Source of the DNA: Escherichia coli
GTDB lineage: Bacteria > Pseudomonadota > Gammaproteobacteria > Enterobacterales > Enterobacteriaceae
DNA length: 64,000 nucleotides
Assembly: GCF_003790525.1 (NCBI RefSeq)
Contig: NZ_CP033635.1
Direction: 5' to 3' (one strand)
Within the stretch, counting starts at the first letter, position 1; every line of letters begins with the position of its first letter. The notes below the pieces were generated by a model. It did no database searches. It was not told the DNA's origin and saw only the letters and a list, made by a program, of their open reading frames with translations. This document shows positions 48,094-48,990 of the stretch, piece after piece. A program made the translations under genes and the position numbers.

Positions 48094-48990
48094 TTAACAT
48101 ATAACTTCACGCTCTTCTATTAAATCAAAAACATTATTCGTAGTGTAATGTTCCCATCTTTTATTATATCCCTCTTTCGACAAAATTGAGACATCATCCG
48201 TTCCTTCTCCCTCATCTAAACCATGCATGAAACAAACTCCAGCAACATTAGAAAGAACATATCTATTATGCAGACATTCATTACCCTCGCGAGAAGTTAA
48301 AGACTTAAATGTTACTGATAATTTAAAATCGTCTGGAAAGACAAGGTTTTCGCGGTTCAACTTATTAGCCAAATAATTCACCGTTGGGGAGTTTTCTTTA
48401 CTCCCATCAAATATAACATCTATCTTTAAATTTTTTTTATAAGAGTTATTAGCACTAACGCTAAGTAATGAAATAAATACATTCCACCATCTTTGTTTGT
48501 CACTAAAGTATGGGTCAACTATAATAATATGCTCTGATGTTTTTAATAAGCGTGAGATTATAGATATCATATCCTCAGCAATTCTAGCAACAATTTTTTG
48601 CCGAGCATAATTTAACCCAAAGAAATCATCTATATTAGTTACATCAAGGTTATCACAAGGAGTAGAACTCACTACATGATCAAATTGTTCAATTCGATTT
48701 ACAGCAGAGATGTTATCTGACCATGACATGTCACCAACATAATCATAAACCCTACTAACCTTATTATTTTTCAAAAAAATAATAAGGTCCTCTAATCGTT
48801 TTTTTTGAAGTTCACTATGATTAGCATTTAATAGCCCAAGCAATTGTTTTTTATTTCTCTTCAGCTTTGGTAATTCACTATAGAGAAAGTTACCGCCCGT
48901 AGAAAATCCTTTTATGAAGTCACGATAATTTCTCCGATCAATTGCGATCTCAAACAAAGCCTCTGGTGAAATGGCGCATTCGTAGAACAT
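48094..48990 (-). CDS. hypothetical protein with a PLD-fold-like (MIT_C-like) DPY...H-N-R...G-x-G-LD signature
   Basis: ORF 48094-49035. The ATG at MFYECAISPEALFE overlaps the ATPase stop (TAATG). The C-terminal half contains HIIIVDPYF and, about 100 aa later, CLHNRYVLSNVAGVCFMHGLDEG. The gene is AT-rich. Confidence 0.5.
   Translation of the reverse strand: MFYECAISPEALFEIAIDRRNYRDFIKGFSTGGNFLYSELPKLKRNKKQLLGLLNANHSELQKKRLEDLIIFLKNNKVSRVYDYVGDMSWSDNISAVNRIEQFDHVVSSTPCDNLDVTNIDDFFGLNYARQKIVARIAEDMISIISRLLKTSEHIIIVDPYFSDKQRWWNVFISLLSVSANNSYKKNLKIDVIFDGSKENSPTVNYLANKLNRENLVFPDDFKLSVTFKSLTSREGNECLHNRYVLSNVAGVCFMHGLDEGEGTDDVSILSKEGYNKRWEHYTTNNVFDLIEEREVIC

Follow-up and report, generated by a model that had tools for sequence, protein, structure and literature searches.

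A Type I restriction-modification (R-M) operon of Escherichia coli, in a 64,000-nucleotide stretch of contig NZ_CP033635.1 (the window, to which all positions refer), closes with two genes, one for an ATP-binding cassette (ABC) ATPase and, directly after it, one at 48094..48990 on the minus strand. This partner gene, present in the list of open reading frames (ORFs) and in RefSeq for an identical E. coli locus, encodes 298 residues plus a stop codon, and its product is labeled 'hypothetical protein' (WP_000499115.1). The question that this locus raises is what the partner does for the ATPase. A sequence-only reading had likened two short strings of the partner to the MIT_C subtype of the phospholipase D (PLD) fold and had considered a nuclease or phosphodiesterase variant or a nucleotide-binding module. 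We consider it fairly probable that the partner is the effector half of a two-gene ABC-ATPase/effector module that is related to the NsnB-NsnC pair of the Menshen system, lacks NsnA, and is located at the 3' end of the Type I R-M operon, the effector being an ATPase-gated PLD-domain phosphodiesterase or nuclease.

The partner starts with the ATG at 48990 and not with a longer ORF from 49035, because the former is also the RefSeq call, because the aligned methionine (of MFYECAIS) is the first residue in 95% of the homologues in the family alignment, and because this ATG overlaps the stop codon of the ATPase gene (TAATG) and is preceded by the Shine-Dalgarno-like AGGGGAG.

A word-indexed homologue search reached only enteric relatives with at least 74% identity, and an AlphaFold2 (AF2) model based on nine close homologues (≥74% identity) was unusable, with a predicted local distance difference test score (pLDDT) of 42.5. 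An exhaustive search with hidden Markov models (HMMs), covering 1.84 billion cluster representatives, gave a family of at least 1011 cluster representatives at E≤1e-3 (377 at E≤1e-10), nearly all of them about 300 residues long and aligned end to end. The model from a 122-sequence alignment, which replaced the first one, reached a pLDDT of 96.7 and a predicted template modeling score of 0.92, and a Foldseek search of the PDB matched it to PLD-superfamily structures (best E 3.5e-5). Its C-terminal domain (residues 128-298; 48097..48609, minus strand) has the alpha/beta-sandwich of the PLD fold in the MIT_C subtype, and the closest structure, by root-mean-square deviation as well as by identity, was the MIT_C domain of MITD1 with its DPY, H-D-R, and G-x-G-L-D elements. 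The suspected resemblance was thus supported by structure search, and the MIT_C strings on which it was based are correct: human MITD1, identical in sequence to PDB 2ymb chain A, contains WIEDPYIRH and HDREIRFN...GRGLD.

Both strings of the partner that had been singled out are encoded by the ORF at 48094-48990. The first, IIIVDPYF (residues 155-162; window 48505-48528, minus strand), has an acidic residue and Pro-Tyr straight after a beta strand, corresponds to the 'D/E after beta2' of MIT_C-like domains, and aligns with WIEDPYI of MITD1. The second, LHNRYVLSNVAGVCFMHGLDEG (residues 240-261; window 48208-48273, minus strand), contains the series H-x-R-x4-N ... G-L-D and is closer to the first than the supposed 100 residues or so, D159 and H241 being 82 residues apart. 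When 131 of the cluster representatives, each less than 50% identical to the others, were aligned with MAFFT, the DPY, HNR, and GLD residues proved to be the most conserved positions of the protein. D159 is present in 93% and replaced by E in 6%, which makes an acidic residue in 99%; P160 is found in 95%, Y161 in 67% (H in 23%), H241 in 98%, N242 in 81% (D in 8%), R243 in 100%, G257 in 99%, and D259 in 83%. Position 248 is D in 54%, E in 29%, and N in 16%, with one of these three in 130 of 132 aligned sequences. As the residues are near-invariant across 131 divergent representatives, the motifs are not a chance occurrence. The enteric clade shares only 34-38% identity with the non-enteric members nearest to it and departs from the consensus of the family at several otherwise conserved positions, with I for W15, F or L for R35, N for W46, and N for D248.

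The relation to the HKD motif of PLD enzymes can be seen when the motif is compared with that of the nuclease Nuc (1byr), whose residues 94-128 are HDKVIIVDNVTVETGSFNFT. Nuc has H-D-K-VIIV-D ... G-S-F-N, MITD1 has H-D-R-EIRF-N ... G-R-G-L-D, the consensus of the partner family is H-N-R-YILT-D ... G-x-G-L-D, and the E. coli partner has H-N-R-YVLS-N ... M-H-G-L-D. The partner had been described as not matching HxK(x4)D, and the literal pattern HxK(x)4D(x)6G(S/T)xN is indeed not found in it, as the lysine is never present. However, judged by its register with HDKVIIVD of Nuc and HDREIRFN of MITD1, HNRYVLSN is a Lys-to-Arg positional variant of the HKD motif, H-x-[K/R]-x4-[D/N], of which each partner chain has one copy. 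The motif pattern and the colinearity with Nuc and MITD1 are sequence arguments that support an effector role.

Profile comparisons also pointed to the MIT_C subtype. In an hhalign comparison of the family with an MITD1 profile, the DPY, HNR/HDR, and GLD elements were correctly aligned (P 8.8e-4, probability 23%), the low probability being attributable to the shallow, vertebrate-only MITD1 profile (Neff 1.6). MIT_C (PF16565) was the commonest Pfam match among the family members, with four of 122, all below the gathering threshold of 25 bits (best E 0.0012); one member, P0113, reached 18.4 bits with residues 157-257 on profile positions 14-113 of 142. The PADLOC model of BrxL matched 17 of the 122 members (best 2.6e-7), which fits the published remark that MIT_C-like domains terminate many BrxL proteins (PMC12065111), and the NsnC model matched 10 of the 122. 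Three different family alignments were used to search the PDB by sequence profile and gave nothing relevant, and matches to Pfam nSTAND3 (E 0.032), NCBIfam VPA1262, and PADLOC mad2 were taken as noise. None of PADLOC v2.0.0, Pfam, and NCBIfam contains a model for the partner family.

The N-terminal 150 residues had been regarded as featureless, but the structure search with the AF2 model revealed a PIN-like fold for residues 1-125 (48616..48990, minus strand). Of the four acidic residues required by catalytic PIN domains, only E4 in strand 1 is conserved (86%), and this domain is for that reason probably catalytically inactive and not a nuclease. A MIT domain (PF04212) was not detected by Pfam in the partner, at the N-terminus or elsewhere. 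Both domains are equally conserved (mean pairwise identity 29% for the N-terminal and 28.5% for the C-terminal domain) and have been kept together.

The ATPase gene (48990..50612, minus strand; RefSeq 'AAA family ATPase') overlaps the partner gene by 1 nt and encodes a 540-residue ABC ATPase of the AAA_15/AAA_21 type (Pfam AAA_15, 1.1e-22). Its motifs are intact, with the Walker A sequence GPNSAGKT at 50502-50525, the Walker B-like sequence IAIEQPE at 49311-49331, a GxG motif, and an H-loop, followed by a DUF3696-like tail at 48996-49130 (all on the minus strand). The PADLOC matches place it with the NsnB, PDC-M55A, HEC-03, and AriA type of ATPase: PDC-M55A 1.4e-40, NsnB 3.2e-37, HEC-03B 6.7e-25, and AriA 5.5e-22, the latter over the whole AriA model.

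The coupling of the two genes is conserved far beyond the enteric bacteria. We examined 80 distant loci from diverse phyla, which were picked by the subfamily peptide pattern LHNRY[IV]LT and constitute a sample that is biased accordingly. A homologous ATPase was encoded within 10 kb in 78 of the 80, in nearly all cases directly upstream of the partner on the same strand and usually touching or overlapping it. Homologues of hsdS were found in 37 of these loci, of hsdM in 32, and of hsdR in 30; the order hsdR-hsdM-hsdS-ATPase-partner was intact in about 27, and a few more had extra genes between hsdS and the ATPase. Additional contig look-ups covered ten other family members, eight of which were informative and two (P0022 and P0140) on contigs that were too short. 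The hsd-ATPase-partner order also occurs in Salmonella and Citrobacter relatives (74-88% identity) and in the distant members P0018, P0028, and P0098, whereas in P0053 and P0083 a sigma-54 activator is followed by the ATPase and then the partner; hsdS or a sigma-54 activator was upstream of the pair in every other sampled locus. The ATPase-partner pair is thus a self-contained cassette for which the tail of a Type I R-M operon is a frequent, but not the only, docking place.

A sigma-54 enhancer-binding protein of about 500-600 residues heads the operon on the same strand in 49 of the 80 distant loci (L002-L081; for example L007:6749-8272, L041:417-2216, and L070:941-2485) and also in L091 and L092. 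In all five cases tested, its N-terminus gave a weak but consistent match to an RtcR-type (CARF-like) domain (PF06956, E 4.5e-5 to 4.8e-3). A canonical sigma-54 promoter, TGGCAC-N5-TTGCT, starts within a few nucleotides of the activator stop codon in 41 of 48 cases, as compared to a background rate of 0.028 per 450 nt. As the activator heads the operon and the promoter follows at its stop codon, the hsdRMS-ATPase-partner operon, or the pair alone, appears to be induced via an RtcR-like sensor in activator-bearing lineages. Such activators beside R-M systems have been noted earlier (Makarova et al. 2014, PMC4012209). At the E. coli locus, a sigma-54 promoter and an activator were looked for and are absent.

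Seven of the distant loci (L011, L020, L021, L024, L028, L035, and L080) contain tandem modules of the order ATPase-X-ATPase-partner (for example L021:6906-7919). In L020, L021, L024, L028, and L035, the protein X has 325-378 residues, and its match to the family HMM does not begin before about position 63-87 (E 1e-17 to 1e-20); X is thus a paralogous partner with a different N-terminus. In three Latescibacterota loci (L005:3522-8039, L008:3534-8045, and L013:3611-8128), an ORF of about 1505 residues lies between hsdS and the ATPase; no Pfam family was common to these three ORFs at E≤1e-5.

Among known defense systems, Menshen is the closest to the pair. It is composed of NsnA, a ParB-DUF262 sensor, NsnB, an AAA_15 ABC ATPase with a DUF3696 tail, and NsnC, in which an inactive PIN-like N-terminal domain (inPIN) is joined to one of 15 C-terminal effector families, including the MIT_C-like 'PB-PLD1' (Li et al., NAR 2025, PMC12065111). 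In the predicted NsnB4-NsnC2 complex of that study, the DUF3696 tails hold the inPIN domain (PMC12065111). Our locus has an NsnB-type ATPase directly upstream of the effector, and the partner combines an inactive PIN-like domain with a C-terminal effector domain as NsnC does; it fits the 'inPIN + PB-PLD1' class point by point, PB-PLD1 having been compared by its description only. There are three differences. NsnA (ParB-DUF262 plus ParBDB) is absent upstream of the ATPase, where E. coli has hsdS; the partner family has HNR and not HDR in 81% of its members; and the two domains of the partner form a fixed unit, whereas those of NsnC are shuffled (PMC12065111). In the distant loci, 30 ORFs other than hsd genes that immediately precede the ATPase were searched, and none has a DUF262 domain; the annotation of the 64-kb E. 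coli region likewise lists no DUF262 product. The published survey could not have found NsnA-less pairs because it began from DUF262.

PARIS (AriA-AriB) and HEC-03 have the two-gene design too, with an ABC ATPase in control of a partner of nuclease fold; however, our partner has no AriB or Toprim (DUF4435) match in PADLOC or Pfam and has a PIN plus PLD fold, and neither the E. coli partner nor any of the 122 family members matched the second-gene models of HEC-03 and PDC-M55. PrrC/EcoprrI and the Rlo genes of Campylobacter Type I R-M loci are examples of abortive-infection or accessory genes inside a Type I R-M operon. In contrast to PrrC, the partner contains no anticodon-nuclease domain, and ATPase and effector are encoded by separate genes. 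The single-HKD PLD nucleases (Nuc, NucT, Zucchini, BfiI, and the SauUSI nuclease domain) differ from the partner by lysine in place of arginine, GSxN in place of GxGLD, and the lack of the conserved DPY element. MITD1, which acts in cytokinesis and binds membranes, has the same MIT_C subtype (PF16565; PDB 2ymb and 4a5z) combined with a MIT domain, whereas the partner has a PIN-like domain and an ATPase in its place. With respect to its position, the pair has precedents: Hma, BREX, and Type I R-M systems have been shown to contain embedded cassettes of an ABC ATPase and one of various partners, one ATPase family being listed 74 times in the tables of that study (Payne et al., bioRxiv 10.1101/2024.01.29.577857). 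HEC-03, an ABC ATPase with a PIN protein, defends against phage and requires both genes (10.1101/2024.01.29.577857).

Several observations weigh against an ATPase-gated PLD effector of the Menshen type. At the level of matches, the E. coli partner itself has no Pfam match to MIT_C (none at E≤1) or to any PLD family, matches the PADLOC NsnC model with only E 0.0032 over a short stretch, and is preceded by an ATPase whose DUF3696 match is below the threshold (E 0.0024; 18.5 versus 22 bits). At the level of residues, the lysine of HKD is always arginine in the family, the aspartate is asparagine in the E. coli clade, and this clade additionally deviates from the consensus at the conserved N-domain positions (W15I, R35F, and W46N). 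Moreover, we know of no characterized H-x-R PLD enzyme, and no catalytic activity is, to our knowledge, known for the MIT_C domain of MITD1, the closest structural relative.

In the main rival explanation, the PLD-like domain is a non-catalytic binding module and the partner a sensor or adaptor for a phosphate-bearing ligand, a nucleic-acid end, or a membrane lipid, while the toxic or defensive output comes from elsewhere, for example from the ATPase or the restriction enzyme. The MIT_C domain of MITD1, FAM83, and the sugar-binding domain of TrmB are thought to be non-catalytic, and the latter two illustrate that the fold can serve in this way. We nevertheless regard a pure binding function as unlikely, as the conservation of the histidine (98%), the arginine (100%), the acidic residue at position 159 (99%), and the glycine (99%) fits an active site, and as Tdp1 shows that an asparagine in the position of the HKD aspartate is compatible with catalysis. 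Without the PLD domain, the ATPase-partner module would moreover contain no other candidate effector, and in Menshen, HEC-03, and PARIS the partner of the ATPase is a nuclease (PMC12065111; 10.1101/2024.01.29.577857).

It could also be thought that the pair serves the Type I enzyme itself as an accessory that processes or degrades DNA after HsdR translocation or controls restriction alleviation. In line with this view, E. coli, Salmonella, Citrobacter, and other relatives have the pair and hsdRMS in one operon, and hsdS homologues lie upstream in 37 of the 80 distant loci, with the pair always in the last position. However, in about half of the loci the 10 kb around the pair contain no hsd gene, such hsd-free pairs often follow only a sigma-54 activator or stand as tandem ATPase-partner duplicates, and the two plasmid copies have no adjacent R-M genes. 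The pattern is that of a self-contained cassette docking on R-M operons, comparable to embedded defense genes (10.1101/2024.01.29.577857), and a dedicated accessory function is therefore quite improbable. That the pair belongs to a canonical Menshen system with NsnA encoded elsewhere in the genome is hardly credible in spite of the ATPase-NsnB match (3.2e-37) and the NsnC-like 'inPIN + PB-PLD1' architecture known from description (PMC12065111), since Menshen is defined by a contiguous NsnA-NsnB-NsnC operon (PMC12065111), hsdS and not a DUF262 protein precedes the ATPase, DUF262 was missing from all 30 non-hsd upstream ORFs and from the annotated 64-kb region, and the N- and C-terminal domains, equally conserved (29% versus 28.5%), stay together unlike the shuffled domains of NsnC.

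We therefore return to the ATPase-gated effector. Fold, motif conservation, gene coupling, ATPase homology, and operon context are established by the observations described above, and from these and from related systems we infer catalysis, substrate, dimerization, trigger, and phenotype. The pair is most likely an anti-phage module of the abortive-infection type, and by analogy to Menshen, PARIS, Septu, and Gabija, gating of the effector by the ATPase is the most likely mechanism. In the uninfected cell, the ATPase oligomer would keep the effector inactive, with the PIN-like domain serving, by analogy to the prediction for Menshen, as a handle that is gripped by the C-terminal tail of the ATPase. 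An infection cue would then alter the nucleotide state or the conformation of the ATPase; such a cue could be a phage protein that disables the restriction complex or mimics its substrates, as in PARIS and PrrC. The effector, freed or rearranged, would pair via its PLD domains, so that two sets of H241, R243, and N248, with D159 close by, would make up a single histidine-phosphodiesterase site; by cleaving nucleic acid, this site would halt phage production. Activation by dimerization is attractive because single-motif PLD nucleases work as dimers, in which two motifs form one active site.

Because the pair is often attached to Type I R-M operons, because its ATPase is similar to AriA, and because PrrC/EcoprrI provides a precedent, a guard role for the restriction enzyme is suggested by analogy. 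PrrC is held latent by the R-M complex until a phage anti-restriction peptide activates it, and the trigger of PARIS is the anti-restriction protein Ocr, in line with an R-M-linked guard role of our pair. A bolder version, to which we give only a small chance, holds that the pair guards the co-transcribed Type I enzyme, that a phage anti-restriction protein such as those of the Ocr, Stp, and ArdA types, by disabling the Hsd complex or mimicking its substrates, makes the ATPase release the effector, and that the MIT_C-type domain is a true H-x-R histidine phosphodiesterase. If this were the case, the MIT_C clade, including some BrxL C-termini and possibly human MITD1, would be an enzymatic PLD branch rooted in prokaryotic immunity.

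The theme of variable-effector ABC ATPases in R-M loci is already established, and the combination of inPIN with an MIT_C-like PLD domain was described computationally in 2025, so that no new principle is involved. What is new here is best filed as a relative of Menshen NsnBC that has no NsnA, is attached to an R-M operon, and carries a PLD effector of the MIT_C type. Should the pair prove to be an active defense module, a widespread and conserved five-gene unit would be missed by PADLOC v2.0.0 and possibly by other defense-finding tools, and E. coli would offer a tractable system for the questions of whether MIT_C-type PLD domains are enzymes and how R-M-attached ABC-ATPase modules sense infection. 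The pair is common enough in E. coli for direct testing: it is present in 274 of 5426 complete genomes (about 5%), the stretch 48000-50700 being at least 99% identical in 272 of the 274 carriers and at least 80% of the stretch being present in 255 of them. In one strain (NZ_CP101705.1, 880745-884222), an IS1 element splits the region that matches window 48000-50700. With tblastn, no phage copies and only two plasmid copies of the partner were found, and there was no significant viral match in BFVD.

In the E. coli operon, hsdS (50621..51763, minus strand; specificity subunit, with a Methylase_S Pfam match in orthologous loci) lies 8 bp upstream of the ATPase gene and is overlapped by hsdM (51760..53394, minus strand; methyltransferase), which is preceded by hsdR (53458..56874, minus strand; restriction/helicase subunit). 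A terminator-like hairpin with a 12-bp stem at 47967..47993 (minus strand), about 100 nt after the partner stop codon, is the probable end of the operon, and a second terminator-like hairpin lies between hsdR and hsdM at 53426-53445; both are consensus matches only. Their positions suggest an hsdM-hsdS-ATPase-partner transcript. The G+C content is 33-35% over the partner, the ATPase, and hsdS (48001-52000) as compared to 51-52% in hsdM and hsdR (52001-56000), a drop which suggests that hsdS and the ATPase-partner pair differ in history from the rest of the operon.

The locus is part of a genomic island that starts with a tRNA-Phe gene (anticodon GAA) at 28718-28793, followed by a tyrosine integrase at about 28970-30154, and that carries other defense-type genes. 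The sequence just past the partner gene, at about 47687-47871, contains a fragment of an integrase pseudogene. The adjoining four genes on the minus strand at 42401-46306 constitute a candidate defense cassette, composed of a WYL/WCX helix-turn-helix (HTH) regulator (45410-46306), a 359-residue protein (PADLOC PDC-M09A, 3.5e-22), a 523-residue protein that matches PDC-M40B (1.3e-42) and is labeled 'ATP--cob(I)alamin adenosyltransferase' in RefSeq, and an 88-residue CxxCxxCC protein. On the other side of the operon, at 58293-62032, this bacterial island contains two genes of the thymidine-hypermodification type, which are usually phage-encoded: one at 60111-61055 for an aGPT-Pplase3/ADDT protein (E 4.8e-90) and one at 61052-62032 for a protein resembling thymidylate synthase (5.3e-25). 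Close to them are a MazG-like gene according to RefSeq (58293-58601) and an HTH and M78-peptidase regulator at 59026-60108 that resembles PD-Lambda-2_B (8.7e-30).

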